This document shows, piece by piece, positions 8,811 through 37,218 of a stretch of 64,000 bases of DNA. How positions within the stretch are numbered: the first letter of the stretch is position 1; every line of letters begins with the position of its first letter. The notes under the pieces were generated by a model. That model did not search any database. It had not been told where the DNA came from and saw only the letters and a program-made list of their open reading frames with translations. The stretch is from Gemmatales bacterium (GTDB lineage: Bacteria; Planctomycetota; Planctomycetia; Gemmatales; HRBIN36), in assembly GCA_035430005.1 (NCBI GenBank), contig DAOMFV010000001.1, forward strand, positions 25,619-89,618, read 5' to 3'. A program made the translations under genes and the position numbers.

Positions 8811-8842
8811 CAAAGAGCAGTCGTCCGGTATTTGGCACTTCC

Positions 8843-12487: not shown

Positions 12488-12497
12488 CAACACTGCG

Positions 12498-17368: not shown

Positions 17369-17381
17369 TGGATCATTGCCG

Positions 17382-20310: not shown

Positions 20311-20320
20311 GGACCAACTG

Positions 20321-20593
20321 ATGTGCCTGGGTATCCCTGGCGAAGTGACACGCTGGATCGATCGCGATCCTCTCCTGGCCCGGGCCGAGGTGCGCTTTGG
20401 TGAATTGCATCGCGTCTGTCATCTCGCTTGTGTTCCCGAAGCCGAGGTCGGCGACTATGTTATAGTCCATGCCGGCATTGCCATCAGCAAAGTCAACCCC
20501 CAGGAGGCCCGCCGATTGTTTGACGAGATTGACAAGTTCGAATTGCAACACGAACTGGCATCTGATATCCCTCCTCCGTGCAACAGCTCATGA
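20321..20593 (+). CDS. hypC: Hydrogenase assembly chaperone HypC
   Basis: Has the characteristic MCLGIPGEV N-terminus and is 90 aa long. Confidence 0.92.
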   Translation: MCLGIPGEVTRWIDRDPLLARAEVRFGELHRVCHLACVPEAEVGDYVIVHAGIAISKVNPQEARRLFDEIDKFELQHELASDIPPPCNSS

Positions 20594-21687: not shown

Positions 21688-21701
21688 CCGGAGTGCCTTT
21701 C

Positions 21702-22754
21702 ATGGCCGGCCCAGTTTGGCAATTCAACTGCCCCGTGAGCGTATCTGCACAGTCCGACTGTGTCACGCTCGCTCACGGCGAGGGTGGCAGACTGATGCGG
21801 CGATTGCTTGATCACGTCATCCACCCCAGCCTGCGGATTAAGCCTCGATTTGCTGACGCTGCTTTTCTGAGACCAACGGGCAACAGACTTGCCTTCAGCA
21901 CCGACAGCTACGTTGTCTCTCCATTGTTTTTTCCCGGTGGCGATATCGGCACACTTGGCGTCTATGGCACCTGCAATGACCTGGCTGTCACTGGAGCCAT
22001 CCCTCGCTGGCTCAGTCTCTCGTTGATCATCGAAGAGGGCTTGCCATTGCCAGTGCTCGAGAAGGTGCTCCAGAGTGTAGCGCAGACAACAGCCGAGTGC
22101 CAAATCCAGATCGTTACTGGCGATACCAAGGTCGTTCCTCACGGCGAAATTGATGGGCTCTTTCTCAACACGACGGGCATCGGTGAGCTAATCGATCCGA
22201 TACCACCCGGTCCAGAGGGATTGCAGGTCAATGATGTTCTAATCGTTTCCGGTCCTATCGGTCGTCATGGCATTGCGATCCTTGCTGCACGAGAGCAGCT
22301 CGATTTCCAGCCTGCACCGGCCAGTGACTGTGCTCCGCTTTTTCCGGCGATCCAGGCGTTACGAAGCGCTATCGGCTCGGAAGTGCGTGCCCTCCGCGAT
22401 GCCACCCGTGGCGGTGTTACTGCTGTGCTTCACGAATGGGCCATCGCCAGTGGAAAGACGCTGTTCCTTGACGAAAGCCGTATTCCCGTTGATTCAGTCA
22501 CTCGCAGCGCCTGTGAACTGCTTGGCTTGGAACCCCTCCATCTGGCCTGTGAGGGGACTATGCTTCTGGCTGTTGCATCGACACACGCCGAACAGGCTGT
22601 CTCGATTCTCCGGACTATTGATGTCTCTCGCCAGGCCGCCATCATCGGGACTGTGCAGCCAAGAACGATCGCCCCTGTCATCATCCGCCGAGTGCTGGGT
22701 CGAGAGCAATCGCTCGATGAACCCACCGGCGCACCGCTTCCCCGCATCTGCTAA
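21702..22754 (+). CDS. hypE: Hydrogenase maturation carbamoyl dehydratase HypE
   Basis: The fold is AIR-synthase-like and the protein ends with the conserved C-terminal PRIC. The ATG at 21702 removes the overlap with hypD. Confidence 0.9.
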   Translation: MAGPVWQFNCPVSVSAQSDCVTLAHGEGGRLMRRLLDHVIHPSLRIKPRFADAAFLRPTGNRLAFSTDSYVVSPLFFPGGDIGTLGVYGTCNDLAVTGAIPRWLSLSLIIEEGLPLPVLEKVLQSVAQTTAECQIQIVTGDTKVVPHGEIDGLFLNTTGIGELIDPIPPGPEGLQVNDVLIVSGPIGRHGIAILAAREQLDFQPAPASDCAPLFPAIQALRSAIGSEVRALRDATRGGVTAVLHEWAIASGKTLFLDESRIPVDSVTRSACELLGLEPLHLACEGTMLLAVASTHAEQAVSILRTIDVSRQAAIIGTVQPRTIAPVIIRRVLGREQSLDEPTGAPLPRIC

Positions 22755-22767: not shown

Positions 22768-25173
22768 ATGTCCCGCTTCATTCGCTGGTTCTCCGATCTC
22801 TCCATCGCTGACGTTCCCCTCGTTGGTGGCAAGAACGCTTCACTCGGCGAGATGTATCGTGAACTGACGCCGAAGGGGATTGCAATTCCGAACGGTTTCG
22901 CCGTCACTGCCGATGGCTACCGGGCTGTCGTCAAGGAAGGCAAACTGGCTGATGTTCTCAAGCGATATCTGACGGGACTCAACACCAGCAACCTTGCCGA
23001 TCTTGCGGAACGTGGCCGAGCGATTCGGGAAGCCATCCTGAACACTCCGCTTCCTGGTGAGCTTCAAACCAGCATCGTTCAGGCCTATCTGCAACTGGAC
23101 AAGGAGTATGGCCCAGACCCCGATGTTGCTGTTCGCTCCAGCGCCACCGCTGAGGACTTGCCCGGAGCCAGCTTTGCCGGCCAGCAGGAATCGTTTCTCA
23201 ACATCCGTGGCGAACGGGCTTTACTCGATGCCTGCAGGCAGTGCCTGGCATCTCTCTTTACGGATCGTGCCATCTCATACCGGGTGGATAAAGGCTTCGA
23301 TCACTTCGCTGTCGCCCTTTCCATTGGCGTGCAGAAGATGGTTCGTTCGGACCTGGCCTGCTCCGGTGTGCTCTTCACCCTCGATACCGAAAGCGGCTTC
23401 CCCGATGTGGTGCTGATCAACAGTGCTTACGGCCTGGGGGAAACCATTGTCAAAGGCCGCGTTGATCCTGATGAGTTCCTGATCTTCAAACCCATGCTGG
23501 AGCGAACACAGCTTAAACCGATCCTCAAACGCCGTATCGGCTCCAAGCAGGAGAAAATGGTCTACGCCAGTCGTGGTGGAAAAAGCACTCGCATCGTCTC
23601 TGTTCCACTGGAACAGCAGCAATGTCTCAGCGTAAATGACGATGAAGTCCTCTCGCTGGCCCGCTGGGGATGCCTCATCGAGAAACACTATTCCCAGAAA
23701 GCGGGCCATCCCGTACCGATGGACATCGAATGGGCCAAGGATGGCCAGACTGGCAAATTCTTCATTCTGCAAGCCAGGCCGGAAACGGTTCACGCCATGA
23801 AACAGCAGGCTGAGATCGAGGTATTTCAACTGCAGCAGAAGGGAAAGGTCATTCTTCATGGCAAGAGCGTCGGTGCTCGCATGGGTGCCGGCGCAATACG
23901 CATCATTCGAAATGCAGATGAACTGGCACAATTTCAGCAGGGCGAAGTGCTGGTCGCGGACATGACCGATCCCGACTGGGAACCGACGATGAAGATGGCT
24001 GCTGCCATCATCACCAACCGTGGCGGACGAACATGCCATGCCGCCATCGTCAGCCGGGAACTCGGCGTACCATGTGTTGTGGGAACAGAACAGGCTACCG
24101 CCTTGCTGAAACCAGGTCAACCCGTCACGGTCTCATGTGCCGAAGGTGATGTTGGCAAAGTCTACGATGGCAAGCTGTCTTTCCAGCGAACCACCATCGA
24201 CGTCAGCAAGATGCCTCGCCCTAAGACCAAGGTCATGATGAACCTCGGCGATCCGGACAAAGCCTTTGCTCTGTCGACCCTGCCTAATGATGGAGTCGGC
24301 CTGGCACGGGAGGAGTTCATCATCTCCTCGTTCATTCGTGTGCATCCACTGGCACTACTACGTTTCGATGAACTGCCAGCCGGCGAGGAGAAGGACGAAA
24401 TCGCTCGGCTGACACAACATCACCCGAAAAAGGCTGATTACTTTGTTGAGAAACTCGCTGAAGGTGTCGGGCAATTGGCTGCCGCCTTCTACCCCAAGGA
24501 TGTCATCGTCCGCCTCTCCGATTTCAAGACCAACGAATATGCTGGCCTGCTAGGCGGCAAGCCTTTCGAGCCGAGCGAAGAAAATCCCATGATCGGCTTC
24601 CGCGGCGCCAGCCGGTACTATGATTCCCGCTACCAGGATGGCTTTCTGCTGGAATGCAAAGCGATGCGCTATGCACGGGAGGTGATAGGCCTGACGAACA
24701 TCAAGCTGATGATCCCCTTCTGTAGAACTGTTGCCGAAGGCGAGAAGGTACTTGCTGTCATGGAGAAGGCCGGGCTCAAACGTGGCCAAAACGGCTTAGA
24801 AGTCTACGTCATGTGTGAAATCCCCAGCAACGTGATCCTTGCGGAAGATTTTGCCCGTATCTTCGATGGCTTCTCCATCGGCTCCAATGATCTCACGCAA
24901 CTCACGCTGGGGCTGGATCGCGATTCCAATATCGTTGCCCATCTTTTCGATGAACGCAACGCTGCTGTCATGCGACTGATCGAGGATGTTATCAAGCGAG
25001 TCAAGGCTTGTTGCCGGAAGATCGGCATCTGTGGCCAGGCACCGAGTGACTACCCGGAGTTTGCACAGTTCCTGGTTCGTTGTGGGATTGATTCCATCTC
25101 GCTCACACCTGATACGATCCTGAAGACGACGCAGGCTATTCTGGAAATGGAAAATCAAAGCTCCGGTCGATGA
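22768..25173 (+). CDS. ppsA: Phosphoenolpyruvate synthase (pyruvate, water dikinase)
   Basis: Starts MSRFIRWFSDL...VGGKNASLGEM. Contains the phosphohistidine region GGRTCHAAIVSRELGVPCVVG and the PEP-utilising C-terminal domain (GFSIGSNDLTQL). GAAGGAG precedes the ATG at 22768. Confidence 0.93.
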   Translation: MSRFIRWFSDLSIADVPLVGGKNASLGEMYRELTPKGIAIPNGFAVTADGYRAVVKEGKLADVLKRYLTGLNTSNLADLAERGRAIREAILNTPLPGELQTSIVQAYLQLDKEYGPDPDVAVRSSATAEDLPGASFAGQQESFLNIRGERALLDACRQCLASLFTDRAISYRVDKGFDHFAVALSIGVQKMVRSDLACSGVLFTLDTESGFPDVVLINSAYGLGETIVKGRVDPDEFLIFKPMLERTQLKPILKRRIGSKQEKMVYASRGGKSTRIVSVPLEQQQCLSVNDDEVLSLARWGCLIEKHYSQKAGHPVPMDIEWAKDGQTGKFFILQARPETVHAMKQQAEIEVFQLQQKGKVILHGKSVGARMGAGAIRIIRNADELAQFQQGEVLVADMTDPDWEPTMKMAAAIITNRGGRTCHAAIVSRELGVPCVVGTEQATALLKPGQPVTVSCAEGDVGKVYDGKLSFQRTTIDVSKMPRPKTKVMMNLGDPDKAFALSTLPNDGVGLAREEFIISSFIRVHPLALLRFDELPAGEEKDEIARLTQHHPKKADYFVEKLAEGVGQLAAAFYPKDVIVRLSDFKTNEYAGLLGGKPFEPSEENPMIGFRGASRYYDSRYQDGFLLECKAMRYAREVIGLTNIKLMIPFCRTVAEGEKVLAVMEKAGLKRGQNGLEVYVMCEIPSNVILAEDFARIFDGFSIGSNDLTQLTLGLDRDSNIVAHLFDERNAAVMRLIEDVIKRVKACCRKIGICGQAPSDYPEFAQFLVRCGIDSISLTPDTILKTTQAILEMENQSSGR

Positions 25174-26584
25174 CCAGCCCCAGCTTGGCCAGTTTGGCGC
25201 GTAGCGTCGGTCGGCTGATGCCCAGAATCTGCGACGCCTGCGACTGGTTCCCTGCGGTTTTCTGCAACACTTCACGAAACAATTGTCGTTCCACAGATTC
25301 AACGACTTCTTCGTAAAGGTTTTTACTGCCCGTTTGAAGTCGTTCTCGAATCAGATCAACGATGGGTTGCTGCCCGCCAGCAGGCCGTTCATGGTGCGAG
25401 AATGATCCCGTTTTAACACCACGTAACTGATCGGGGAGGTGTTCAGGAAGCAATACGGGGCCGGTCATGCAAAGCAGCGCATGCTTGATGGCACTTTGTA
25501 ACTCTCGGATATTTCCCGGCCATGAGTATGATTCCAGCAGAATCATGGCCTCGGGAGAAAGTGATTGAACTTCCTTCTCCATTTCCTTGCCATACTGGCG
25601 TACAAAATGGGATAGAAGGATCGACATATCTCCAGTCCGCTCGCGTAAAGCGGGTAATCGAATCGTAAACACATTGAGACGATAATAGAGATCAGCGCGA
25701 AACACTCCCTTGGCAACTGCCGACTCCAGATCGCGATTCGTCGCTGCGATCACACGGACGTTGGTCTGAATGGTCTCGGCACCACCTACCCGTTCAAACC
25801 TCTGATCCTGAAGCACACGGAGAATTTTCGTCTGCATGAGAGGCGTCATGTCGCCGATCTCGTCAAGAAACAGCGTGCCGCTGTTGCACTGTTCAAACTT
25901 GCCGATGCGTTTGCGATCTGCTCCTGTGAATGCTCCTTTTTCATGTCCGAAGAGTTCACTTTCAAGTAATGTCTCAGGTATGGCGGCGCAATTGATAGCC
26001 AGGAATGGGCCATTGGAACGTTTGCTATAGTGGTAGATGGCACGCGCCACCATTTCCTTCCCTGTGCCGCTTTCACCAAGAATCAGCACCGTCACATCCT
26101 GTGGTGCCACTCGTCCGATGGCCTTGTACACTTCCTGCATGGCCGAACATTGTCCGATCAACACATCACCTTGAGTCTGTTCTGACTCCGATGAGGGCAC
26201 CAAAGCGGGCACTTGCATCAAGCGACTCGATTGCAAAGCGTGATCCACCAACTCGGTTAATTGATCGGGATCGATCGGCTTAACAACATAATCGAAGACC
26301 CCCTGGCTCATAGCTTCAATCGCTGTCTCGGCAGTGCCATGCCCCGTGGCCAGGATGAAAGGGACCTTGGCTGCCTGTTCGCGCACCCTGCGATGCACAT
26401 CGAGGCCGGTTCCATCTGGTAGACGCAAATCGCAGAGGACGACATTGGGCTGATAGCGTTGAAAAAGAGAAATACCCTCTTCTGCTGTCGTCGCCGTCAG
26501 CAGTTGAATGTCTCGATCTTCAAAGGCGTATCGATAGCACTTCAGTGTTAGTGGGTCATCATCGATGGCTAACAAGGTGGGCAT
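25136..26584 (-). CDS. Sigma-54-dependent response regulator (NtrC family: REC, AAA+, Fis-type HTH)
   Basis: Has a REC domain (LLAIDDD...DLRLPDGTG), Walker A GESGTGKE, the GAFTGA loop (EKGAFTGA), and the C-terminal HTH QASQILGISRPTLRAKL. Confidence 0.92.
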   Translation of the reverse strand: MPTLLAIDDDPLTLKCYRYAFEDRDIQLLTATTAEEGISLFQRYQPNVVLCDLRLPDGTGLDVHRRVREQAAKVPFILATGHGTAETAIEAMSQGVFDYVVKPIDPDQLTELVDHALQSSRLMQVPALVPSSESEQTQGDVLIGQCSAMQEVYKAIGRVAPQDVTVLILGESGTGKEMVARAIYHYSKRSNGPFLAINCAAIPETLLESELFGHEKGAFTGADRKRIGKFEQCNSGTLFLDEIGDMTPLMQTKILRVLQDQRFERVGGAETIQTNVRVIAATNRDLESAVAKGVFRADLYYRLNVFTIRLPALRERTGDMSILLSHFVRQYGKEMEKEVQSLSPEAMILLESYSWPGNIRELQSAIKHALLCMTGPVLLPEHLPDQLRGVKTGSFSHHERPAGGQQPIVDLIRERLQTGSKNLYEEVVESVERQLFREVLQKTAGNQSQASQILGISRPTLRAKLAKLGLVIDRSFDFPFPE

Positions 26585-26599
26585 AGAGGCTCCGATGGT

Positions 26600-28522
26600 T
26601 TATTTCACAAATTGCTGCAAAATCGACAATAGTTGTTCATCTGAATAGGGCTTCTGCAGAAATGCCTTAGCGCCTGCAGCAAAGATCGTTCGCAGCCGTT
26701 CCGCTGAGCGGAGTCCGCTGCACGCAATGATTGGCACTTGGGGATTGATTTCACGCATCTGTTGCATGACCGCGGGGCCGTCCAGCCCCGGCATCATCAT
26801 ATCGACAAGAGCAGCACGAACCTTGGGATGGTGCTCCGAAAAAAGAGCAAGAGCAGACATGCCATGCTCAGCCGTCAGAGTTTGGTAACCGCTATTCTGC
26901 AGGACAGCCTGAACGGTTTGAACAATGAGCGGCTCATCATCAACAATCAAAATGAGTTCACCATGTCCCCGGAGCGAGGAAGTTGCCTCGGTCTTGTCTT
27001 CGACAGCCATGTTGACTCCGGTCGCAGGCAGGTAGACAGTTACTCGAGTACCTTTGCCTATTTCACTGTAGACGTTAAGAAACCCTCCATGACTGCGCAC
27101 AATCCCCAGTGCGGTGGAGAGCCCAAGTCCTGTGCCTTTGCCAATGCCTTTGGTAGTGAAGAACGGGTCAAAAATCTTGTCGAGAACTTCGGGAGGGATC
27201 CCGCTACCCGTATCAGCCGCGTCCAAGAGCACATAAGGGCCTGGCTTGGCATCAGGATGAAACTGGCTGTATTCTCCACCGATCACAACGTTCTCAGCTC
27301 GGATGGTAAGCACACCACCGGCCGGCATTGCATCTCGCGCGTTCACGCAGAGGTTCATCAATACTTGCAAGAGTTGGGTTTTATCCCCTTTTACGGTCCA
27401 CAATTCCCCATCGATATTTGTTTCGATTTGAATCGTCTTGCTGAGAGTATGCTGCAACATCTTCTCGACTTCGCCTATTAAAGGCGAAATGGCGACTTGT
27501 GTTCGCTCACCTTCCATACCTCCAGCGAAAGAGAGCAACTGCTTGACCATGTCGATGCCACGCTCCACGCTGGCCTGGGCAGTGCTAAGAAGGTCTCGGG
27601 GTTTCTCATCGGTTACATACTTCCGCAACAGCTTGACGCTCATCAGAATGGGAGTCATAACATTGTTGAGATCGTGAGCGATCCCCCCTGCCAGTACACC
27701 GATACTCTCCAACCGTTGTGCACGAAGAAACTGTGACTCCAGTTTTTTCCTTTCCGTCATATCGATGTTGATCATCAGCTTGGACTTGGGCTTGTTCTGT
27801 TCGTTATGAATGAGTGTCCAATAGGAGGCTACCGTCAGCCGTCGTCCATCTTTAGTGTCGTGGTGCAACTCTCCCTGCCATTCACCTTCCTGTTCGATGA
27901 GGCGGTGGATCTCATCCATGCTGAGACCTTGAGGATGAGAGCAACACTTCAAAACGTGGCAATCTTGTCCGATCGCTTCCTGTGCCGACCAGCCGTAAAG
28001 ACGCTCGGCGCCGGCATTCCAGTAGTTAATGCGATCCTGTAAGTCAGTGACAAGAATGGCTTCCCTGACATTGTTGAGCAACTGAGCCTGTTCACGCAGC
28101 TTTCGGTCATTTTCTTTGCGAGCAGTGATGTCACGAACAAACCCGGTGAATCGTAACTCGTTTTCCGTGCCACACTCTCCAACAGCTAACTCGATGGGCA
28201 CGAGTGAGCCGTCTTTCCTTTTTCCAATCACCTCTCGACCGATGCCGATGATTCGTGGCTGACGTGTCGTGAGGTACTGCTTCAAGTAGCGGTCATGTTC
28301 TTCACGAAACGGCGAAGGCATTAGTATGGTGATATTCTGCCCAACGATTTCTTTTTCCTCATAGCCAAAGATTCGCTCCGCAGCCCGATTGAATTGCTCA
28401 ACCGTTCCATCACTCTTGATCGTAATAATACCATCGACGGCAGTATCCAGAATGGAACGTAAATACGCAGCTTCCTCATCCGCCTTCTTGACGAATTCAC
28501 CGTTGTGTGCTGATTCAGCCAT
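26600..28522 (-). CDS. Hybrid sensor histidine kinase (two PAS domains, HisKA, HATPase_c, REC)
   Basis: Two PAS-like segments are present. Contains the H-box GGIAHDLNN, the N/G boxes ([23 protein letters not shown]) and a C-terminal receiver (LIVDDE...DMMMPGLDG). It ends 15 nt before the regulator gene. Confidence 0.9.
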
Positions 28523-28737
28523 GATGCGAATAGCGCTTCCTTTTTCGTTACATCAGTCCTCGCCCGTAACATCCAGAATGTGACACCAATTATTGACGTG
28601 TTGTCCTCTGTGCGGCAAGTATTTTTCCAGATTGCGCATGGATTGTACAACCAGAGCAGGAAGCGTAACCCTTGTTCATTTGTCACGTGGAGCACAGAGT
28701 TTAGCAAAACCTGACGAAGGTAAGATCCTTGTGCCTC

Positions 28738-28753
28738 TGGCATTGAATCTGCT
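28738..28753 (+). promoter_or_regulatory. Sigma-54-type promoter (TGGCATtgaatCTGCT)
   Basis: GG-N10-GC spacing is exact. The -12 GC lies 45 nt upstream of the ATG at 28797. Confidence 0.65.
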
Positions 28754-28796
28754 CTGCAAGGTTTGGCATGTAAATGCGTTACAACACGAGTCTATC

Positions 28797-29939
28797 ATGC
28801 ATACCCTCTCACGCGATACGATCAAACAACTTGTTGAGCTATCCCACTCACCTGGCCTGATGCTGTCGTGTTATGTCAACTTGAAAGTGCAAGGAGCGTC
28901 CGAACGTCCTGGGATACTTAAAATCAAACACGCAGCCTCGCTACTGAAGCAGAGCATTCCTGAATCATTATCTGAACGGACAGAGTTCGAACAGAATATG
29001 AACAGGATCATCAAGGCCCTGGATGATCCAAGTCTTCACAACAATCATGCTATTGCAATCTTTACCGCCAAACAGAGGGATCAATTTATGATCGTTCCGT
29101 TGGGGATGCCCATCTTAACAGAACTCGTCAACAGTGATAGACCCTACCTGGTTCCGCTGCTGCAATGCCATTTTGCACAACAACGCGAGTATCTTGGGCT
29201 GACATTTGACAACGATCAGGCACGAATATTCCTGGCAAATGCCGGAACTGTCAAGCTGCTGAAACACTGGCATTCTGATGTTCCCACCAAACAGCACTCC
29301 TCCGGTGATCGCGGAGCCTGGTCCCAATCGAATATAGCTAGCCGTCGAGAAGAGATGCTTGATCGCCACCAAAAAGAGATGATCGATGGCTTCTCCAAGG
29401 CGCTGCAGGAACATCCACAAGCCGGTATTCTTCTGCTTGGGCACGAAGTGGAAGTGACTCAGTTGAAGAATAAGCTGCCTCCTCACTTGAGCGGTCGGCT
29501 AGTTCACACGGGGGTGTGTAACAACATGGATTCCGAGAAGTCGCAATCTAAGACCATCCTTGAGATCGTTCGGAAGCAGAATGTGCTTCATGCGCAGTCT
29601 CTGCTCAAAGAACTGAAACGACGCCAATCACTGAAGACGAGTTGTGCCGTCGGGCCAGCTGATGTACTGGCTGCGCTTGACACAGGAAGGTTAACACAAA
29701 AGGGCAGCTTACTTCTGGGGCCCGATCCAAAGGAGGACGCTTTCCTCTGCACGTCGTGCCGTCACCTGGCCTTGGACGAGGTCAAACAATGCCCGCGTTG
29801 TGGCAGTGGGTGCAAGTCCTGCAATTTGTGGGAAGAAATTCTCTTGAGAGCATTTCGCCATCAATGGAATGTAGTACCCGTCGATGGCTCAGAGGGCCTG
29901 ACGAAATCAGGCTTTATTGCAATGCTCCTTGAAGTCTAG
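28797..29939 (+). CDS. Bacterial eRF1/Pelota-like (baeRF-type) protein with C-terminal zinc ribbon, lacking GGQ
   Basis: The N-terminus LSRDTIKQLVELSHSPGLMLSCYVNL, the central ...GDRGAWSQSNIASRREE..., and the C-terminal GPADVLAALDTGRL...SLLL follow the three-domain eRF1 layout. A zinc ribbon CTSC...CPRCGSGCKSC follows. No GGQ tripeptide occurs anywhere. The start at 28797 was chosen from the conserved N-terminus and the promoter position. Confidence 0.6.
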   Translation: MHTLSRDTIKQLVELSHSPGLMLSCYVNLKVQGASERPGILKIKHAASLLKQSIPESLSERTEFEQNMNRIIKALDDPSLHNNHAIAIFTAKQRDQFMIVPLGMPILTELVNSDRPYLVPLLQCHFAQQREYLGLTFDNDQARIFLANAGTVKLLKHWHSDVPTKQHSSGDRGAWSQSNIASRREEMLDRHQKEMIDGFSKALQEHPQAGILLLGHEVEVTQLKNKLPPHLSGRLVHTGVCNNMDSEKSQSKTILEIVRKQNVLHAQSLLKELKRRQSLKTSCAVGPADVLAALDTGRLTQKGSLLLGPDPKEDAFLCTSCRHLALDEVKQCPRCGSGCKSCNLWEEILLRAFRHQWNVVPVDGSEGLTKSGFIAMLLEV

Positions 29940-30092
29940 CAGCCATTGACGGCACATTAGCAGTTACCAGCTTGGAAAGATTCTTTCCGAATCGCCTACG
30001 ATCCGAACCGATCACGCAGTCTGGCTCTTGCTTTTACATGTGATTTAATGCTGTATCGATGGTCATTTGATTCATTTCGACCATGCGGTAAT

Positions 30093-30108
30093 TGGCATGA
30101 CAACTGCT
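30093..30108 (+). promoter_or_regulatory. Sigma-54-type promoter (TGGCATgacaaCTGCT)
   Basis: GG-N10-GC spacing is exact. The -12 GC lies 42 nt upstream of the ATG at 30149. Both elements are identical to those of the 28738 site. Confidence 0.65.
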
Positions 30109-30148
30109 TTTCCTGTGTTGGATTCAAACCAGATCAAAGGACTCGTCC

Positions 30149-30478
30149 ATGACCAAAGCTACTCGTGAAAAGTATCGTCAACAGTTGCTCACACTGGCTA
30201 AAGAAGTCGGCAGAGAATCAGTACACCTCAAGGATGAGGCGGTTCATCCACTGGCCGAGTTGTCCGGACAATTTTCCGAAAAGCACAATGAGCAAGCTGA
30301 GTTGGGAGTAACCATTTCGCTTCTGAACAACGAAGAATCGCTCTCGTCGGAGATCAAAAGTGCCCTCCAACGAATTGACGACGGCACATTCGGAATATGC
30401 ATGAAGTGTCAAAAGTCCATCACCCAAGAGCGTCTTAATGCCATTCCCTATACACCTTACTGCATCCAATGTGCATAG
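30149..30478 (+). CDS. DksA/TraR-family C4 zinc-finger protein
   Basis: The C-terminus is LQRIDDGTFGICMKCQKSITQERLNAIPYTPYCIQCA (CxxC-x17-CxxC), preceded by a predicted helical region. AAAGGA lies upstream of the ATG. Confidence 0.8.
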   Translation: MTKATREKYRQQLLTLAKEVGRESVHLKDEAVHPLAELSGQFSEKHNEQAELGVTISLLNNEESLSSEIKSALQRIDDGTFGICMKCQKSITQERLNAIPYTPYCIQCA

Positions 30479-30511
30479 CTGAACCCGTAATTACCCAGGA
30501 CAGGTGCAGAC

Positions 30512-30736
30512 ATGTTAAAGCAATCGACTCCTCTTCTGATTCAGCTTTCATACCTCCAACAGAACATGAGGGAGCAATTGCGATTCCAGATTCAGAATCT
30601 CCGACTGGAGTTGCGTAACAACGAGATCGTCCTGCTCGGCCGTGCCAGGTCGTACTATCACAAGCAGCTTGCCCAGGAGCTGGTGATCAAGAGAAACTAT
30701 GCCGAGAAATTGGCAAATGAGATTCTGGTAACGTAA
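30512..30736 (+). CDS. Small BON-like domain protein
   Basis: LRLELRNNEIVLLGRARSYYHKQLAQELV...LANEILV fits the BON pattern (x-V-x-V-x-G-x-V-x-L-x-G-x-V...N-x-I-x-V). The gene is 33 nt downstream of the DksA-like gene. Confidence 0.45.
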   Translation: MLKQSTPLLIQLSYLQQNMREQLRFQIQNLRLELRNNEIVLLGRARSYYHKQLAQELVIKRNYAEKLANEILVT

Positions 30737-30744
30737 TCAACTGA

Positions 30745-31059
30745 TCAATAACGAGTTACATCTTGTCTAATCCCCGGCTGAATCGCAACAGGTTTACTGA
30801 TCTTGCTGGGAGGCTGATCATGGTTGCTATGATTATTTCGCTTGTCTAGGAGCATTCGGGCATTGACTTCATCCCAGGCACTCACCATTCCTCGGATTTC
30901 GAGGATACCCGTGAAACCGGCCTGATGCTCTCCTTCAAGCAGGCACTGAATCCCTTCAGATTCCGGCATGTTCTTGAGGATTTCTGCCTCGGCAAATTGG
31001 TTCGTGGAAAAGGCGATGACCGGTTCGTTCTTCACTGCGAGTCTCCTTAGCGGATTCAT
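30745..31059 (-). CDS. DUF2007-like small signal-transduction-fold protein
   Basis: VIAFSTNQFAEAEILKNMPESEGIQCLLEGEH...LEIRGMVSAWDEVNARMLL resembles the DUF2007 pattern. It is the last gene of the minus-strand stress operon. Confidence 0.4.
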   Translation of the reverse strand: MNPLRRLAVKNEPVIAFSTNQFAEAEILKNMPESEGIQCLLEGEHQAGFTGILEIRGMVSAWDEVNARMLLDKRNNHSNHDQPPSKISKPVAIQPGIRQDVTRY

Positions 31060-31610
31060 GTTTTGGATAAGGCCTTAAGCAGTTCTTCAGTCTTCGCTCT
31101 TCCGCCATGGCCCTTGCTTACGAGCGAGAAGGTGACAACGCCCTTGGTATTCACGCCAAAGGTTGCAGGGAAGACCGTTTCATTAGGAGCGGCCCAGCGT
31201 AAGCCATACTTAGCCGCAAAGCCGTAATCCGGGTCGGTGACAAGCCGAAAGTTGTTGGGCAGCATTTTGTCAGCAAGAAATTCACGTGCATGCTCGTCCA
31301 ATTTGCCCGCGGCACCAGGATAGATCAGGAGCACAGTTGCTCCGGCATCCATAAAACTGCTCGATTTACTAATCAAGTCAGCGACCTGTTTTTGGCATAT
31401 TTCACTTTGTGCTCCAGGGTAGCCTCGCAGAACAATGATGGCGACAGGACCTTTTTCATACAGAAGTGACAACTTAACCGAAGAGCCATCCAGCGTCTTG
31501 AGCTCAAAATCCTGAGCAGTTTCCCCGGTCAAGGGCGATTTGTCCCATTCAGGAAGAGTAGCTTGCAGGAAAAGCAGCCCGAGAACAAGCGATATGTGTG
31601 ACAAAGTCAT
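31056..31610 (-). CDS. Secreted redoxin/peroxiredoxin-like (AhpC/TSA family) protein
   Basis: The N-terminus is signal-like (MTLSHISLVLGLLFLQA). The thioredoxin-fold block is FELKTLDG...GPVAIIVLRGYPGAQSEICQKQV. The alternative start at 31637 would overlap the upstream gene by 11 nt and has no RBS. Confidence 0.6.
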   Translation of the reverse strand: MTLSHISLVLGLLFLQATLPEWDKSPLTGETAQDFELKTLDGSSVKLSLLYEKGPVAIIVLRGYPGAQSEICQKQVADLISKSSSFMDAGATVLLIYPGAAGKLDEHAREFLADKMLPNNFRLVTDPDYGFAAKYGLRWAAPNETVFPATFGVNTKGVVTFSLVSKGHGGRAKTEELLKALSKT

Positions 31611-31626
31611 GTACAAGATGCACCTC

Positions 31627-32739
31627 TCATGATCCATTTTTCTTGCGCATTGCCATGGCAGTGCGCACTCGTTCCGTTGCTAGGTCAACCGCAGCCTGGC
31701 GGGGTGAGATTCGTTCATCCCGTGAACGTGTAAAGACAGATCGGGTATTATCTCGGATTCGCTGCGCAATCATGTCGAATGCCAAAGACTGGGTGCCACC
31801 ATGAAATTCGACGGAAGCACAAATGACACCGCCTGCGTTAGCGATAAAATCGGGTACGACAAATACGCCTCGTTCCCGTAGAGTCGTTTCAGCAGCATGG
31901 GTAGCCGGGATATTGGCTCCTTGAAGAATCAGTTTCGCCTTGATCGACGCAACATTCCTTTCATTTATGCAGTCAGGCTTGGCTGCGGGGATCAAAATGT
32001 CGCAAGCTACGCCAAAGAGGTCCTTTGCCTCCATCTTCTTGCCGCCTGCGTAACTGGTAACCGTTCCAGTACGGTCCTTGGTCTGTATCAGTTTCTCGAT
32101 ATCGATGCCCTGGGCATCGTACACGGCACCCTTGCTATCGCTTGCTGCTACCAACCTCACCCCTAGCTCAGCAAGAAACTGCGCAGCGGGCCGTCCAACG
32201 TTGCCGAAACCTTCGATGCCGAGTGTTGCCCCTTTGAGCTTGAGCCCGGCAAATTCAGAAGCGACTTCCGCGCAACGTGCCAGTCCATAACCAGTCGCTC
32301 CAATCTTATCCAGAGGTATGCCACCCAGTACACTGGGAAGACCGACTGATCGGCCAATCTCATCCCAGATCAACCCCATGCACGTTTCATCGGTGCCCAT
32401 ATCAGGACCGGGAATGTAACTCGTTAACTCACGAATGCTACGAGCAAAGCTACGGACCAAGCTGGCTTTGTTCTTGCCCTTCGGATCGGCGATTAAGCCT
32501 GCCTTCCCTCCTCCGTGGGGCAACCCTGCGGCTGCATTTTTAAGTGTCATGGCCCGTGCCAGCCGATAGACTTCATCCACACTGACATCCACCGCCATCC
32601 GTACGCCCCCGATGGCAGGACCGCATGCGGTGTTGTCGATCACTACAAATCCCCGCATTTCCGTGTGAGGATCAAAAAGATGCACAATCTTCTCAGGACC
32701 AAGCACATCATAATATCTATCTAAGGCGGTCGTTGACAT
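31627..32739 (-). CDS. Glu/Leu/Phe/Val-family amino-acid dehydrogenase
   Basis: Contains the catalytic-Lys block AAAGLPHGGGKAGLIADP and the Rossmann motif GIEGFGNVGRPAA. The ATG at 32739 is preceded by GGAGA. The longer ORF start at 32910 overlaps the upstream gene. Confidence 0.85.
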   Translation of the reverse strand: MSTTALDRYYDVLGPEKIVHLFDPHTEMRGFVVIDNTACGPAIGGVRMAVDVSVDEVYRLARAMTLKNAAAGLPHGGGKAGLIADPKGKNKASLVRSFARSIRELTSYIPGPDMGTDETCMGLIWDEIGRSVGLPSVLGGIPLDKIGATGYGLARCAEVASEFAGLKLKGATLGIEGFGNVGRPAAQFLAELGVRLVAASDSKGAVYDAQGIDIEKLIQTKDRTGTVTSYAGGKKMEAKDLFGVACDILIPAAKPDCINERNVASIKAKLILQGANIPATHAAETTLRERGVFVVPDFIANAGGVICASVEFHGGTQSLAFDMIAQRIRDNTRSVFTRSRDERISPRQAAVDLATERVRTAMAMRKKNGS

Positions 32740-32780
32740 ATTGTCTCCAGAACACTTCACCGTGGCTCCCGGTCGAATGA

Positions 32781-33635
32781 TCAATGATAAAGGAACAGAG
32801 GCACTGGACTTTCCTTCAGCAGAGTGCGAGTAACCGATCCAAACAAGAAATCCCTGAGCTTGCCGTGACCGAAAACTCCCATCACGAGGATGGAAGGATC
32901 GCAAAGCCATGTCTGCTTGATAATGGCTTGAGCCGGATGATCCTTGCAGACCACGGCATGCACCATGAAGGGGCGATCATGCCAGGTGAGGAAATCGGCG
33001 GCTTGTTGAGCATGTTTTTCAGCCTCGCTATGGCTGGTTGCGATACTGACGATATGCACCTTCTTATCCTTGTCGATCCCTGAAGCTTCGAATGCTTGCA
33101 GCGCTCGCGCCGCTTCTGGGCTGCCATCGTAAGCCACCATAACACACTTGCTCTCTCGAATGCTGTTGGGAACAGTCACAACTGGCCTGGAGCAAAATCG
33201 TGCTACTTCTTTAAGCGTGGCATCCAGTTCTTCCGAGGAACCTCGATGGAAAAAGGTACGTCGCCCGAGCATCACCAGGTCGAAGCGCTGGGCCTGTGTC
33301 GTCAGTCGCTCAGCTGGTACGCCCAGGTCTTCCAGTAGCTTGCATGGCACCTGTCGCTCTGCACATTGAAGTGTGAACTGCTGAAGATATCGTTCCACAC
33401 GCCGCTGATCTTCGTGAAACAAACGTTGGTCCAGGCCGGACGCCTCAGCCAGTGGATCAAAGGGGGGCAGTCCTGGAACCATTTGGCTGGGCAAACGAGT
33501 TACCACTGCGGGCTCATCGACAATACCGATGCCCACCAGCATCGCATCAAGTTGTTTGGCCCAAAGCAAGCCAAGTTCCACGGCAGCATGGCTGAATGGA
33601 GAACCGTCCAGTCCTATGAGTATGCTCTTGACCAT
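32781..33635 (-). CDS. Tandem universal stress protein (two UspA domains)
   Basis: There are two USP units. The first is SILIGLDGS...LVMLGRR. The second is CVMVAYDGSPEA...ILVMGVFGHGKLRDFLFGSVTRTLLKESPVPLFLYH, carrying the ATP-binding G-x2-G-x9-G(S/T) motif. The start is ambiguous (33635 or 33710). Confidence 0.85.
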   Translation of the reverse strand: MVKSILIGLDGSPFSHAAVELGLLWAKQLDAMLVGIGIVDEPAVVTRLPSQMVPGLPPFDPLAEASGLDQRLFHEDQRRVERYLQQFTLQCAERQVPCKLLEDLGVPAERLTTQAQRFDLVMLGRRTFFHRGSSEELDATLKEVARFCSRPVVTVPNSIRESKCVMVAYDGSPEAARALQAFEASGIDKDKKVHIVSIATSHSEAEKHAQQAADFLTWHDRPFMVHAVVCKDHPAQAIIKQTWLCDPSILVMGVFGHGKLRDFLFGSVTRTLLKESPVPLFLYH

Positions 33636-33731
33636 TTCAGCCTCATCAAAGATCCGAAGAAAAGAATCCTCGGCAGCCTGACAGGTGCGATGAGCCATTT
33701 CGCCTGCCAAGGATTCAAAGTCGCCACCGTC

Positions 33732-34205
33732 TCACTTGGTTGACTGGATGGCAATGGGCTTGCCCCGAGCCGTCTCCACCTTGGGGATAGCCACCGTTAG
33801 CAAGCCGTTTTGGAACTTGGCCTCTGCCTTGTCCATGATGCATCCCTCAGGCAACGTGATCGAACGAAAGAGCGAAGAACGGCGTTCTTCCGAGCATTCC
33901 TTATCCTTCACTTCTGATTTGTGCTCTGCCTTCAGCACCAACTCGTTGCCTACCTGCTTCAAATCGATCTCTTTGGCATCGAACCCGGGTGCCTCGAATC
34001 GGGCAATCACCGAGTTGTCCTTCTCTTCCAAGTCCACGCCCCAGGAGGGCTTTTCGTTGTCGAAGAACGACACATCGCCGAAGAACCGCTGGAAGACTCG
34101 ATCCATCTCCTGACGAAACTGATTGAAGACAGGGAACCCGCTCCACTTCGCCAGTGAACCATTGCCGTTCAACTGTTGGGTCTTGCTGGGAATCATGCTA
34201 CTCAT
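33732..34205 (-). CDS. Hsp20/alpha-crystallin small heat-shock protein
   Basis: The alpha-crystallin core is VIARFEAPGFDAKEIDLKQVGNELVLKAEHK...FRSITLPEG...AKFQNGLLTVAIPK. Confidence 0.92.
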   Translation of the reverse strand: MSSMIPSKTQQLNGNGSLAKWSGFPVFNQFRQEMDRVFQRFFGDVSFFDNEKPSWGVDLEEKDNSVIARFEAPGFDAKEIDLKQVGNELVLKAEHKSEVKDKECSEERRSSLFRSITLPEGCIMDKAEAKFQNGLLTVAIPKVETARGKPIAIQSTK

Positions 34206-34266
34206 GGTCTTAGCTCCTTGTGATCAGGGTTTAGGTAAAGTGAAACTGTTGATATGGCGTGCGACA

Positions 34267-34719
34267 TCATCCCTTTACGTTTGACTCTGGGGACAATGGC
34301 ACAATAAGGACAGGGCAAGGAGCCCGCCGCAATACGTGGTCGGCTACGCTGCCAAGAAATAATCGCTTGAATCCAGTACGGCCATAAGTGCCCATCACGA
34401 TTAGATCAGCATGACAGGACTGTGCCTTGCTCACAATCGTTTCAACGGGTGTGCCCTCGATGAACATATCCTCGATCTTAAGACCAGACTTGCTTTCCAG
34501 TATTTGCCGAAGTTTCCGCCGTACATCCTCTTCTGAGACCATCTCATGAGGAATAACAGGAAGATCGCCTGTGCTGAGAGCTTCTATCATGTAGGCATGC
34601 AAGACCACGATCGTGGCGTTAGCTGACTCAGCGATTTGACAAGCCAGTTTCAACGCTTGCTCTGCATTAGGCGAGAAATCGGTCGGGTGCAAAATGATCT
34701 TTGGCGGCCAGGTTGTCAT
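34267..34719 (-). CDS. Universal stress protein (single UspA domain)
   Basis: Contains ILHPTDFS...LIVMGTYGRTGFKRLFLGSVADHVLRRAPCPVLIV. Confidence 0.9.
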   Translation of the reverse strand: MTTWPPKIILHPTDFSPNAEQALKLACQIAESANATIVVLHAYMIEALSTGDLPVIPHEMVSEEDVRRKLRQILESKSGLKIEDMFIEGTPVETIVSKAQSCHADLIVMGTYGRTGFKRLFLGSVADHVLRRAPCPVLIVPLSPESNVKG

Positions 34720-34754
34720 GGTTTAACTCGCAGCAGGTTAACGTGATGACTCAT

Positions 34755-34770
34755 TGCAGACCGAGTGCCA
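34755..34770 (-). promoter_or_regulatory. Sigma-54-type promoter (minus strand TGGCACtcggtCTGCA)
   Basis: GG-N10-GC spacing is exact. The -12 GC lies 37 nt upstream of the usp start codon at 34719. Confidence 0.65.
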
Positions 34771-34952
34771 AAGCTTAAAAATACGTCGGGAGTAGCCACC
34801 GTGCTGAATGGCAATTCAGATGTGTGAGAAGTCGAAATGCCTGCCGTCGAGAAAACTATTTGCTGGAAGTTAATTGCTTTCCATCATGGATAGAAACTTA
34901 CCGGCACAAGTCGGCTTCTCCGATAAAAACACTAGTAGATGGTATTCATGCA

Positions 34953-34968
34953 CGGCACGGAAACTGCC
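34953..34968 (+). promoter_or_regulatory. Sigma-54-type promoter (cGGCACggaaaCTGCC)
   Basis: GGCACG-N4-CTGC with exact spacing. The -12 GC lies 43 nt upstream of the ATG at 35010. Confidence 0.55.
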
Positions 34969-35009
34969 TTCTGGTAAGTAGGGAGGAACACCGAACTGGA
35001 GCACACATC

Positions 35010-35525
35010 ATGCCTGCCACATTACTTGGACAACCACTAGTTCTCTCTTCCGGCACTGTCGATATGGCCATGTCAGACAACCCTGTCTCCGTCTCTGATA
35101 TTGAGACAGCACAAGGCGTGGCTCAAGTGCTCATCGAGCATCGCATCAGCGCTGTCCCGATCATTAATGAAGCTGGGCATCCCGTAGGAGTTATCAGCCG
35201 TACAGACCTGGTCAATCACCTGGTGCAACTTCAGAGTCACGTTCGCACCCTGGAAGAGGACTGGTTTGAATGTGGGAATATCGTTGATGAAGAAATCATA
35301 AGGAGTCAACCCTGTCGGGCGGGTTCCTGGAGCAAGATCACCGCCAAAGCAATCATGAATACAAGATTGTTCACAGTTACACCTGAAGATTCTCTTGAGA
35401 TAGCTGTCGAACTCATATTGAAACACCACGTTCATCGGCTCTTCGTCGTTGATCATGACGGTGTTCTTGTTGGCATTATCAGTACCTTCGATATCCTAAA
35501 CCGACTTGAACGACGTTTCGAGTAG
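35010..35525 (+). CDS. CBS-domain pair protein
   Basis: There are two CBS units (VAQVLIEHRISAVPIINEAGHPVGVISRTDL and AVELILKHHVHRLFVVDHDGVLVGIISTFDIL). The ATG at 35010 has GGAG 9 nt upstream. The ORF part upstream of it has no domain content. Confidence 0.8.
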   Translation: MPATLLGQPLVLSSGTVDMAMSDNPVSVSDIETAQGVAQVLIEHRISAVPIINEAGHPVGVISRTDLVNHLVQLQSHVRTLEEDWFECGNIVDEEIIRSQPCRAGSWSKITAKAIMNTRLFTVTPEDSLEIAVELILKHHVHRLFVVDHDGVLVGIISTFDILNRLERRFE

Positions 35526-35712
35526 GGCTTTAAGCCATGAGCAGCATTGGATCGGCCAAGAAGTCCTGCGTTCTGGGGTAACCATGACACCAACGACTCC
35601 TTTGACTCACCCTGTGCTCATTGCAGTGGCCTGGTATCGCTCATGTGGGTATTAATGCTGGATTCTACATGATGTCCAAGTTGGGCATGTCCCTATCAAT
35701 GCCTAGAGCCTG

Positions 35713-36069
35713 TTATTGACTTCGGAAGGCAGCTTGTTTGATAATGATGGTGAGGAAGGCAAGCCAGTGCCACCCTTCGAGAACTTTGGCCAGTCGTTCG
35801 TAGTCGCGGGCCAAGTGTCTAAAACGGGCGAGCCAGCCAAAGGTACGTTCCACCACCCAGCGTCGTGGTAACAGCACAAAACCCTTCTTGGCTTCCGTGT
35901 GTTTAACGACTTCCAGACGGATGCCATGCTGACTGGCTTGTTGAGTTGCATCTTCACCGGTGTATCCTTGATCCACATAGGCCAGCGTCACTGTACCACC
36001 AGTGGCCTCTTGCACCTGGGACGCCAATTCAGCCACTTGGGCTCGCTCTTGTTCGTTAGCTGCTGTCAC
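35713..36069 (-). pseudogene. IS5-family DDE transposase, C-terminal fragment only
   Basis: Contains YVDQGYTG (second Asp region) and LLPRRWVVERTFGWLARFRHLARDYE (Glu region). The N-terminal half with the first catalytic Asp is absent and no terminal inverted repeats were identified. Confidence 0.75.
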
Positions 36070-36159
36070 CTTTAAAGCCAGCAGATTTGCCGAGAAGCTA
36101 TTTCACTCCCTGCTGATTTCTGGACATCAGCTACAAGCGGCACTACGCTCCCGTCATGC

Positions 36160-37218
36160 TCATTCATCTTCTACGACAGTTTTCTTAGGCACATAGTCAA
36201 TTGTTGTTCGATCCATGCAAAACCAATCGTTGATGGCCTCCTCTTCGTAGTTAAACACGATTGTTTTCCTCTTGGCATTTTGAGCAAATAAATGGAACTT
36301 GAGATTAAACCCATATCTGAGATTTGGCCGCACTCCACTACGTCCATCAATGCTTTGAAATTGAAGCCCTTGTGTTTCGAGTCTCTTATTCTTTACCGAA
36401 AACTCGATCTCGGCTTCTGGATGCAAAGGGCGACTCAAGTAAGCATGCGCTTTTCCTTGTAGCATTGCAAGTTGAGCATGAACAACAGCATCTAGCCTAA
36501 ATCCTGACTCTGAATGGGAATTCACGAGATTGACAGGGGCATTGGATTCCAAAACAACAAGTATCTCGTGTGCCGTTGCCGTCCCCTTGTTCTGAAGAAC
36601 TAAGATCATCGAAAACTCTACCGAGGCATCGCTTTTCACTCGCATGACTGTGTTCTGTATCAAGTCAAGATCAACCTTGGTAAACGGATAGAACATTTGT
36701 TTCAGCATCGAATGCGGAATTACCTTGCATGACTCGCCAGCACGCATGACATAGGTTTTGGCCGATCCAGGAAATTCTCTGCGGTGTGGCCGATGTGGAC
36801 TGAGAGGAACATAGCAAACCAACACACCCTTATCTGGGCCAGCGGTTTCAATCGGTAAGTATCGGACACCTTGAACGGGTGGATCGTTGGCAACGTGAAT
36901 CTGCTTAGTCAGAATGGCTTGCAGTTCGGACAGTGATTGAACTGGTACAACTTCGCCAGGGGTGTCTCTGGAAGTTGTACGAATACCGACAATGAGCAGT
37001 CCGCCTTCGGTGTTGGCAAAAGCTGATAAGTATTCTGACCATGCTTCCTGAATCTTGTCTCTGTCGAACTCCGTTGCGTTTTTCATCCAGCATTGTTTGT
37101 AATCAATCCATTCGTGTTCCGATGGCTTGTGTTCCAAGACGTAGGCAATTTGCTCCGCACCTGTATTGAGTTGGTTAAGTTGGCTGAAAAACGATTCAAC
37201 ACGGGATGGAAGGGCCAT
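36160..37218 (-). CDS. Schlafen/AlbA_2-like putative DNA/RNA-binding domain protein with uncharacterised C-terminal half
   Basis: The N-terminal EHEWIDYKQ...LSAFANTEGGLLIVGI...GVLVCYVPLSPHRP...TYVMRAGESCKVIPHSMLKQMF follows the AlbA_2 (PF04326-type) pattern. The gene is visibly AT-rich compared with its neighbours. Confidence 0.55.
   Translation of the reverse strand: MALPSRVESFFSQLNQLNTGAEQIAYVLEHKPSEHEWIDYKQCWMKNATEFDRDKIQEAWSEYLSAFANTEGGLLIVGIRTTSRDTPGEVVPVQSLSELQAILTKQIHVANDPPVQGVRYLPIETAGPDKGVLVCYVPLSPHRPHRREFPGSAKTYVMRAGESCKVIPHSMLKQMFYPFTKVDLDLIQNTVMRVKSDASVEFSMILVLQNKGTATAHEILVVLESNAPVNLVNSHSESGFRLDAVVHAQLAMLQGKAHAYLSRPLHPEAEIEFSVKNKRLETQGLQFQSIDGRSGVRPNLRYGFNLKFHLFAQNAKRKTIVFNYEEEAINDWFCMDRTTIDYVPKKTVVEDE

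Follow-up and report, generated by a model that had tools for sequence, protein, structure and literature searches.

FixL-FixJ systems are described from rhizobia, Caulobacter, and Burkholderia, and some rhizobia have hybrid versions of FixL that end in a receiver domain. The DosR regulon includes the Balon-type protein Rv2629, several Usp proteins, the Hsp20 alpha-crystallin HspX, and the CBS-pair protein Hrp1. In the NmpRSTU system of Myxococcus xanthus, which is the closest functional precedent for the locus described here, hypoxia-induced sigma-54 promoters and their NtrC-like activator are ultimately under the control of a haem-based oxygen sensor, and a dual-CBS protein and a Usp belong to the regulon (PMC11841059). 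We analyzed a 64-kb stretch of DNA (the window) from a Gemmatales (Planctomycetota) metagenome-assembled genome (MAG; NCBI locus tags PLN21_), in which a hybrid histidine kinase and an NtrC-type activator adjoin four transcription units with sigma-54-type promoters. We interpret these genes as a compact sigma-54 regulon, conserved in the clade and governed by a two-component system that responds to oxygen, i.e., a low-oxygen or energy-stress dormancy programme, and estimate the probability of this interpretation at approximately 0.7. The hibernation and stress genes of the regulon are most likely switched on at low oxygen.

The two regulators are encoded side by side on the - strand: an NtrC-type enhancer-binding response regulator (positions 25136 to 26584; Pfam Response_reg, Sigma54_activat, AAA_lid_14, and HTH_8) and a soluble hybrid histidine kinase (26600 to 28522; PAS-PAS-HisKA-HATPase-REC by Pfam). 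The kinase and the product of the adjacent divergent gene, which a preliminary description of the locus had called eRF1-like, are 100% identical to NCBI proteins annotated as "MAG TPA ... [Gemmatales bacterium]". The gene calls of that description (kinase, activator, and targets) agree with the Pfam domains. Its central proposal, a single regulon of four units controlled by the neighbouring kinase and activator, is supported by the linkage of the pair to the promoters in six further genomes, by an upstream motif shared among the units, and by the finding of this motif only at loci with the activator.

Four predicted sigma-54 promoters with a CTGC element at -12

The four predicted sigma-54 promoters are all intergenic and lie exactly at the coordinates and on the strands previously claimed. 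The first, TGGCATTGAATCTGCT (28738 to 28753, +), precedes the gene of a 380-aa Balon-like protein (28797 to 29939, +; Pfam baeRF_family10) and is an invariant block in the intergenic alignment A2 described below. The second, TGGCATGACAACTGCT (30093 to 30108, +), precedes the gene of a DksA/TraR-type zinc-finger protein (30149 to 30478, +; Pfam zf-dskA_traR, with NCBIfam DksA and yteA matches below cutoff) and the gene of a 74-aa BON-like protein (30512 to 30736, +; a weak match to Pfam BON), which probably form one transcription unit (30149 to 30736, +). The third, TGGCACTCGGTCTGCA (34770 to 34755, -), precedes a six-gene unit (30745 to 34719, -) that encodes, according to Pfam, Usp, Hsp20, a tandem Usp, a Glu/Leu/Phe/Val-type dehydrogenase, an AhpC/Redoxin protein, and a DUF2007 protein; no further sigma-54 match was found within this unit. 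The fourth, CGGCACGGAAACTGCC (34953 to 34968, +), precedes the gene of a 171-aa CBS-pair protein (35010 to 35525, +; Pfam CBS x2) and is the weakest match, with a C replacing the T before GG.

The distance from the -12 GC to the first start codon, put earlier at 37 to 45 nt, was measured as 45 nt (ATG at 28797), 42 nt (ATG at 30149), 37 nt (start codon at 34719), and 43 nt (ATG at 35010), respectively. The use of CTGC instead of TTGC at -12 is true of all four window sites and extends to 11 orthologous sites. All 15 promoters read (T/C)GGCA(C/T)-N5-CTGC, and the base before TGC is always C (consensus, T).

The core pattern GGCAY-N5-CTGC has seven exact matches in the window on both strands (2.2 predicted by shuffles). 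Four of these fall 20 to 80 nt upstream of a start codon in the correct orientation, a zone that makes up 2.6% of the search space (binomial P = 1.6e-5; Poisson P = 4e-7 versus the shuffle expectation). The other three are located at 19719 (within hypF), 47645 (within a Tex-like gene), and 63200. Regarding the background rate, which the preliminary description had named as a possible ground for refutation, three matches of equal quality in the 58 kb of coding DNA of the window are far below the density and the positional consistency of the promoter zone.

We regard it as highly improbable that the four sites are chance GG-N10-GC matches, or that they are conserved as coding sequence or as an RNA element and not as promoters. 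The three exact matches outside promoter positions would fit such an explanation, as would the automatic gene call of the Logan assembly, which starts the baeRF gene at ATG 28638 and thus puts the first promoter inside a longer coding frame. Against it stand the positional enrichment (P ~1e-5), the position of the sites in invariant islands of otherwise diverged intergenic DNA from five genomes, and an Rfam scan of positions 24000 to 37000 that returned no RNA family. The longer baeRF frame is excluded, and the first promoter is thus intergenic, because the N-termini in an alignment of 14 proteins (A1) coincide with the residue encoded by ATG 28797, which is also the NCBI call. The 13 homologues in A1 are 379 to 395 aa long, except for one 468-aa outlier with an unaligned N-terminal extension.

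A 22-column sigma-54 matrix that included the spacer (nine external sites) was also tried and was rejected for overfitting the spacer: the usp site scored 11.2 bits versus a shuffle mean maximum of 14.8. Since this matrix failed to separate the usp site, the core pattern, the positional statistics, and conservation were used instead. Elsewhere in the window, a sigma-54-like sequence, TGGCACCGCATGCGCT (GG-N10-GC; 9077 to 9092, +), is present in the intergenic region 8811 to 9303, approximately 210 nt upstream of a P-type cation ATPase gene (9304 to 11937). This site may belong to another activator or be a chance match, because no GGnAAG-N3-YTTnCC motif (see below) is nearby.

A dyad shared by the upstream regions of all units

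The preliminary description reported no convincing shared upstream site by eye and suggested a motif search. This judgement is now superseded: comparison of all upstream regions identified one common 15-bp dyad, GGnAAG-N3-YTTnCC, that precedes every unit. The first site, GGCAAGTATTTTTCC (28614 to 28628, +), is the top match of the window (22.4 bits) and has its centre 118 bp before the GG of the Balon-like promoter, in the intergenic region common to the Balon-like gene and the divergent kinase operon. The second, the perfect palindrome GGAAAGATTCTTTCC (29974 to 29988, both strands), provides the second- and third-best matches (one on each strand); its centre is 113 bp upstream of the dksA promoter, and it is conserved in alignment A3. 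The third, GGTAAGTTTCTATCC with a third half-site ATGGAAAG (34888 to 34902, -), is the fourth-best match and contains the block AATTGCTTTCCAnnATGGATAGAAACTTnCC conserved in alignment A4. It lies 126 bp from the usp promoter and 59 bp from the divergent cbs promoter and is common to both; thus, there are three upstream sites for four promoters. A third half-site is often found 5 bp beyond the dyad (e.g., TATCCAtgaTGGAAAG at the usp/cbs site).

To avoid circularity, the motif matrix was built from eight non-window instances only. Across the 128 kb scanned (the window on both strands), the four best matches to this external matrix were the three window sites, and shuffles give 0.19 matches at that score. 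The exact pattern GGNAAGNNNYTNTCC occurs in the window only at 28614 to 28628, 29974 to 29988, and 34888 to 34902. The motif centre is 94 to 139 bp upstream of the -24 GG at 13 promoters and 59 to 60 bp upstream at two cbs promoters, where the spacing is short because the site is shared with the divergent usp promoter. A generic inverted-repeat finder did not pick up the 6-bp half-sites.

The motif was absent from 11 loci that carry distant Balon, DksA, or Hsp20 genes and no kinase/activator pair: no score there reached those of the promoter-assigned sites, and only two weak matches (13.3 and 13.9 bits) were detected. Distant baeRF homologues (30 to 35% identity; L009 to L027) had been tried as additional cases of the regulon and were rejected, as they mostly occur without the kinase/activator, the upstream motif, or a convincing direct promoter; their neighbours include DksA, Hsp20, and Usp genes, and they were used as a negative control. 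Given the conservation of the motif, its co-occurrence with the pair, and the conserved recognition helix of the activator, the dyad has the signature expected of the activator's enhancer and is the predicted binding site.

A sigma-70-like pair, TTGCCG-18-AATAAT (28618 to 28589, -), points toward the kinase operon. It is conserved in L005 and partly in L007, and not clearly in L008 or L019 (genomes introduced below). Its -35 hexamer overlaps the first upstream site, from which one might speculate that the kinase operon is autoregulated.

Conservation of the pair and its promoters in six further genomes

Contigs with a baeRF or kinase homologue were compared, which added six genomes: L005, L007, L008, L019, L030, and L031 (i.e., the cultured Telmatocola sphagniphila SP2; CP074694.1). 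A single-sequence search of genome contigs with the baeRF protein retrieved no relatives, and an alignment-based scan was needed. The kinase-activator pair and TGGCAY-N5-CTGC promoters co-occur in the window and in all six genomes, where the target genes are partly reshuffled; altogether, 15 promoters of this form precede orthologous genes in the seven genomes (window included). Identity to the window proteins is 79 to 94% for the activator and 75 to 85% for the kinase in L005, L007, L008, L019, and L030, and 56% and 52%, respectively, in Telmatocola.

The pair always adjoins stress genes in an arrangement that varies by genome. L005 has a promoter before all four units, as in the window, with the six-gene usp unit in identical order (65 to 90% identity), a CBS orthologue of 76% identity, and the cbs promoter conserved as CGGCACGCAATCTGCT. 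L007 has one promoter before the Balon-like gene and another before an M50-CBS peptidase gene; L008 has promoters before usp-Balon and before dksA; and L019 has one before usp-Balon. The BON-like gene of L030 has its own upstream site and sigma-54 promoter. The Telmatocola promoter, TGGCACAAAGTCTGCA, precedes an hsp20-kinase unit (CP074694.1, about 4,038,000 to 4,041,000).

In the intergenic alignments A2 to A4, mean column identity was 56 to 79%, with conservation concentrated in islands around the promoter and the upstream motif. In A2 (five genomes; the kinase/baeRF or usp intergenic region; mean column identity, 56%), the invariant columns form two blocks, TGGCA-N6-CTGC and GGCAAGT(A/C)TTTTTCCA. 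A3 (dksA region) and A4 (usp/cbs region) give the same picture of promoter and motif islands.

These data bear on the possibility that the sigma-54 promoters are genuine and driven by another enhancer-binding protein encoded elsewhere, with the adjacent pair a bystander or a partial regulator. Planctomycetia genomes encode many enhancer-binding proteins (PMC12316311), and the hybrid kinase has no obvious phosphotransfer route to the activator, both of which would accommodate such an arrangement. However, the adjacency of activator and promoters is kept in seven genomes despite the reshuffling of targets, the upstream motif is seen only at loci carrying the activator, and the recognition helix and the motif are conserved together, also in Telmatocola. 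We therefore judge control by a different activator to be quite unlikely and favour control of all four units by the adjacent pair.

The surroundings of related pairs provide further observations. At 1009 to 1180 of L008, upstream-site-like GGAAAGTTTTTTGGC (1009 to 1023) and TGGCACGGCACATGCT (1165, +) precede genes for dienelactone hydrolase, phosphoribosyltransferase, nitroreductase, and thioredoxin, with a PfkB gene on the other side of this region. The dienelactone hydrolase-to-thioredoxin genes and the PfkB gene may be further regulon members, adding to the DosR-like content. The contig of a 68% kinase orthologue carries genes for Usp, a TPP enzyme, Hsp20, baeRF, CBS, DUF2007, pyruvate:ferredoxin oxidoreductase, and cbb3 oxidase around the pair. 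In two other MAGs (L033 and L034), pairs of a FixL-like hybrid kinase and a sigma-54 activator were found at approximately 53% identity; the pair in a Planctomycetaceae MAG is next to CBS-Hsp20-BON and a hibernation factor of the HPF/RaiA type, and that of a Limnocylindrales MAG adjoins cytochrome oxidase genes. Because of these two pairs, the kinase/activator module appears to be wider than Gemmatales.

An NtrC-type activator and a putative FixL-type haem kinase

The activator contains a REC domain with Asp52 (in VVLCDLRLPDG), an AAA+ domain (Sigma54_activat, 6e-74) with GAFTGA at residue 217 and the Walker B sequence DEIG at residue 241, and a C-terminal Fis-type helix-turn-helix (HTH). It thus has the features of group I (NtrC-type) activators, i.e., a phospho-acceptor Asp, Walker A/B, GAFTGA, and a Fis-type HTH. 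The partner regulator is REC-AAA+-Fis HTH in all seven genomes, and the Fis-type recognition helix is conserved across the orthologues, including that of Telmatocola. Since the activator scores below the cutoff of every named NCBIfam equivalog (NtrC, AtoC, ZraR, and others), it is predicted to be an orthologue of no named system.

The kinase consists of a FixL-type haem PAS domain (aa 18 to 144), a second PAS domain (about aa 149 to 259), HisKA (H-box, IAHDLNN), HATPase, and a C-terminal REC, with no membrane segment. The preliminary description had the PAS-PAS hybrid architecture right and did not recognize the first PAS domain as FixL-type. In a phmmer search against the Protein Data Bank (PDB), this domain matched Sinorhizobium RmFixL (1d06; E = 1.3e-38), Bradyrhizobium BjFixL (1dp6; 8e-37), and Escherichia coli DosP (~1e-16). 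The equivalents of the proximal His (BjFixL H200), Ile215/Ile216, and the O2-binding Arg220 are kept in the window kinase and in five orthologues. The kinase is best read as a putative FixL-type haem oxygen sensor, in which haem binding is predicted from these residues. The kinase/activator pair is not a strict FixLJ system, because the partner is an NtrC-type activator and not a FixJ-like protein (REC with a LuxR/NarL-type HTH). Naming the kinase CckA-like (JGI names; NCBIfam CckA, 328 bits versus a cutoff of 1000) was rejected, as the likeness is limited to the HisKA-HATPase-REC core.

A Balon-like protein among the predicted targets

The gene called eRF1-like in the preliminary description is indeed a baeRF gene by Pfam; its affiliation with the Balon-type hibernation family had been missed. 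The protein matched the NCBIfam MSMEG_1130 hibernation-factor family (E = 2.8e-16; 59.5 bits versus a cutoff of 480) and the Rv2629 family (9.5e-8, below cutoff), and the A1 profile matched in the PDB Balon MSMEG_1130 (8v9j; E = 2.8e-11 over residues 80 to 363) and Rv2629 (8v9k; 1e-3). Neither the GGQ nor the NIKS motif is present in the 380-aa protein; the loss of NIKS/GGQ is a criterion for Balon-type factors (PMC10901736). As the family matches lie below the cutoffs, we consider the protein to be a distant member of the Balon superfamily rather than an equivalog, and a putative hibernation factor. The Balon-like proteins of the clade have an invariant CxxC...CxxC arrangement in the C-terminal domain (C318, C321, C332, and C335; A1 columns), which is probably a zinc ribbon. 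The aligned stretch of mycobacterial Balon MSMEG_1130, whose structure is solved, lacks cysteines.

The other targets comprise three usp genes and genes for Hsp20, a CBS pair, a DksA-like protein, a BON-like protein, a peroxiredoxin, an amino-acid dehydrogenase, and a DUF2007 protein. This set is typical of low-oxygen or energy-stress programmes, and the genomic context agrees. Rv2629 and Msmeg1130 are hypoxia induced, and Balon genes often adjoin those of Hsp20 and the CBS protein Hrp1 (PMC10901736). Given that the kinase is FixL-type and the eRF1-like gene Balon-type, the regulon gains both a likely signal and a likely theme.

Proposed mechanism and its weak points

By analogy with FixL, the loss of O2 from the haem PAS domain would relieve the inhibition of autophosphorylation. 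The phosphoryl group would then pass to Asp52 of the activator, either directly or modulated by the kinase's own receiver. The activator would bind the GGnAAG-N3-YTTnCC sites located ~113 to 126 bp (three promoters) or 59 bp (the fourth) away and oligomerise, and its GAFTGA loop would remodel the sigma-54 holoenzyme at the putative TGGCAY-N5-CTGC promoters.

Several points weigh against this interpretation. An RpoN-box search and Pfam analysis of open reading frames of at least 90 aa did not find rpoN in the 64-kb window. The cbs promoter has the weaker -24 element, and its upstream site is only ~59 bp off; the sites of enhancer-binding proteins are usually more distant. At L033 and L034, neither the promoter motif nor the upstream-site motif was found. 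Because the kinase is a hybrid that ends in a receiver, and neither an HPt domain nor a nearby HPt gene is present, direct transfer from kinase to activator is an assumption. The polarity of the response (kinase on without O2) would follow FixL, the one model for it. The equivalent of BjFixL Arg206 is Gln in the window kinase (Arg or Lys in the orthologues), and the second PAS domain may sense something else.

With respect to the sigma factor, one sigma-54 gene each is listed for Telmatocola sphagniphila SP2 (KIH39_11425), Gemmata massiliana, Tuwongella immobilis, and Frigoriglobus tundricola (PMC12316311 supplement). Predicted sigma-54 promoters are enriched at UspA genes in Planctomycetia (PMC12316311).

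A further alternative concerns the signal. The regulon could be organized as described and respond to something other than oxygen (NO, CO, redox state, or a metabolite, via the haem or the second PAS domain), or the kinase could be active with O2 bound and induce aerobic or oxidative-stress genes. CO and NO are also ligands of FixL-type haems. The targets include a peroxiredoxin, and the Gln in place of Arg206 and a second PAS domain with no assigned ligand would both be compatible with such a signal. On the other hand, the closest solved relatives, FixL and DosP, are all O2 sensors, and the equivalent of the O2-binding Arg220 is kept. The Balon, Usp, Hsp20, and CBS targets match the hypoxia regulons of mycobacteria and Myxococcus, and the neighbours include genes for a fermentative-type NiFe hydrogenase, phosphoenolpyruvate (PEP) synthase, pyruvate:ferredoxin oxidoreductase, and cbb3 oxidase. 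We consequently hold a different signal or the opposite polarity to be unlikely, and retain the lack of oxygen as the favoured inducing condition.

Genes flanking the regulon

Positions 12020 to 22754 contain a gene for a cNMP-binding protein, a four-subunit group-3b-like NiFe hydrogenase cluster (Fer4_22, NAD-binding/FeS subunit, small subunit, large subunit, and HycI protease), and hypB, hypF, hypC, hypD, and hypE. A PEP synthase gene comes after the hyp genes (22768 to 25173), and its 3' end (+) overlaps convergently that of the activator gene (-) by 38 nt (25136 to 25173). The hyp and PEP synthase genes adjoin the activator gene in L030 too, with the same overlap.

The hyp neighbours had raised the idea of HoxJ/HupT-type hydrogenase regulation as the main role of the pair. 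This role was rejected because the hyp adjacency is kept only in L030 and because no regulon-type pair of promoter and upstream site precedes the hydrogenase, hyp, or PEP synthase genes of the window. The adjacency is not kept in L007 and L008, and the contigs of L005 and L019 end within or just past the activator gene.

Directly 3' of the cbs gene, a DDE transposase fragment (118 aa) and a Schlafen/AlbA_2 gene occupy positions 35713 to 37218. The regulon is bordered by a rearrangement here, since the syntenic L005 carries a PAC2-family gene at the corresponding place.

Comparison with known systems

All of the component classes are textbook ones, and it is their combination that appears to be new: full-text literature searches aimed at the system returned no description of a FixL-type kinase, an NtrC-type activator, and a sigma-54 regulon combined. 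Planctomycetota are largely aerobes, yet they persist in peat, sediments, and biofilms. If our interpretation is true, the locus would be the first in this phylum for which a regulator, a binding motif, and a regulon of low-oxygen survival are defined, and it would provide a mechanism of transcriptional control for a Balon-type hibernation factor outside actinobacteria. The predictions are directly testable, because the same architecture is present in the cultured Telmatocola sphagniphila SP2.

The window system resembles FixL-FixJ in its soluble PAS-PAS kinase with a homologue of the FixL haem domain as the first PAS. It differs in the partner, since FixJ is a NarL/LuxR-type regulator that works with sigma-70, whereas the window partner is an NtrC-type AAA+ protein predicted to work with sigma-54. 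It differs also in the targets, which are fixK/nifA or cbb3 oxidase genes on the FixJ side and dormancy and hibernation genes in the window. With the group I systems (NtrB-NtrC, ZraSR, AtoSC, and DctBD), the locus shares the REC domain, the AAA+ domain with GAFTGA, the Fis HTH, a dyad ~100 to 140 bp from a -24/-12 promoter, and an adjacent kinase gene. In contrast, its sensor type, binding motif, and targets are different, and the -12 element is invariably CTGC instead of TTGC.

The window system is predicted to share with NmpRSTU a haem sensor, an NtrC-like activator, sigma-54 promoters, and CBS and Usp targets. However, the globin-coupled NmpU is active with O2 and acts through a sign-inverting relay via a second kinase, NmpS, whereas the window encodes a single FixL-type hybrid kinase. 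The Nmp site is GCGCA-N5-TGCGC and that of the window is GGAAAG-N3-CTTTCC. The Nmp targets stress oxygen utilisation (cbb3 oxidase and HemN), and those of the window include a hibernation factor.

The parallel with DosS/DosT-DosR (DevR) lies in target content: a Balon-type factor, Usp, Hsp20, and a CBS pair, with nitroreductase, phosphoribosyltransferase, and PfkB genes adjoining the system in relatives of the window genome. The regulatory parts are unlike, with GAF-haem sensors, a LuxR-type regulator, and sigma-70-type promoters in the DosR system and a PAS-haem kinase, an NtrC-type activator, and sigma-54 promoters in the window. Any likeness to DosR is convergent and not homologous. On a broader view, to which we give about even odds, Gemmatales, and possibly the wider Planctomycetota, may have independently built a hypoxia-dormancy regulon equivalent to DosR in content by combining a haem kinase of the FixL type with an NtrC-type activator, an enhancer not described before (GGAAAG-N3-CTTTCC), and sigma-54, placing a zinc-ribbon variant of Balon directly under oxygen control. 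If so, this regulon and that of DosR would form a clear case of convergent assembly, in which a programme of Usp, Hsp20, CBS, and a hibernation factor came under a haem oxygen sensor.

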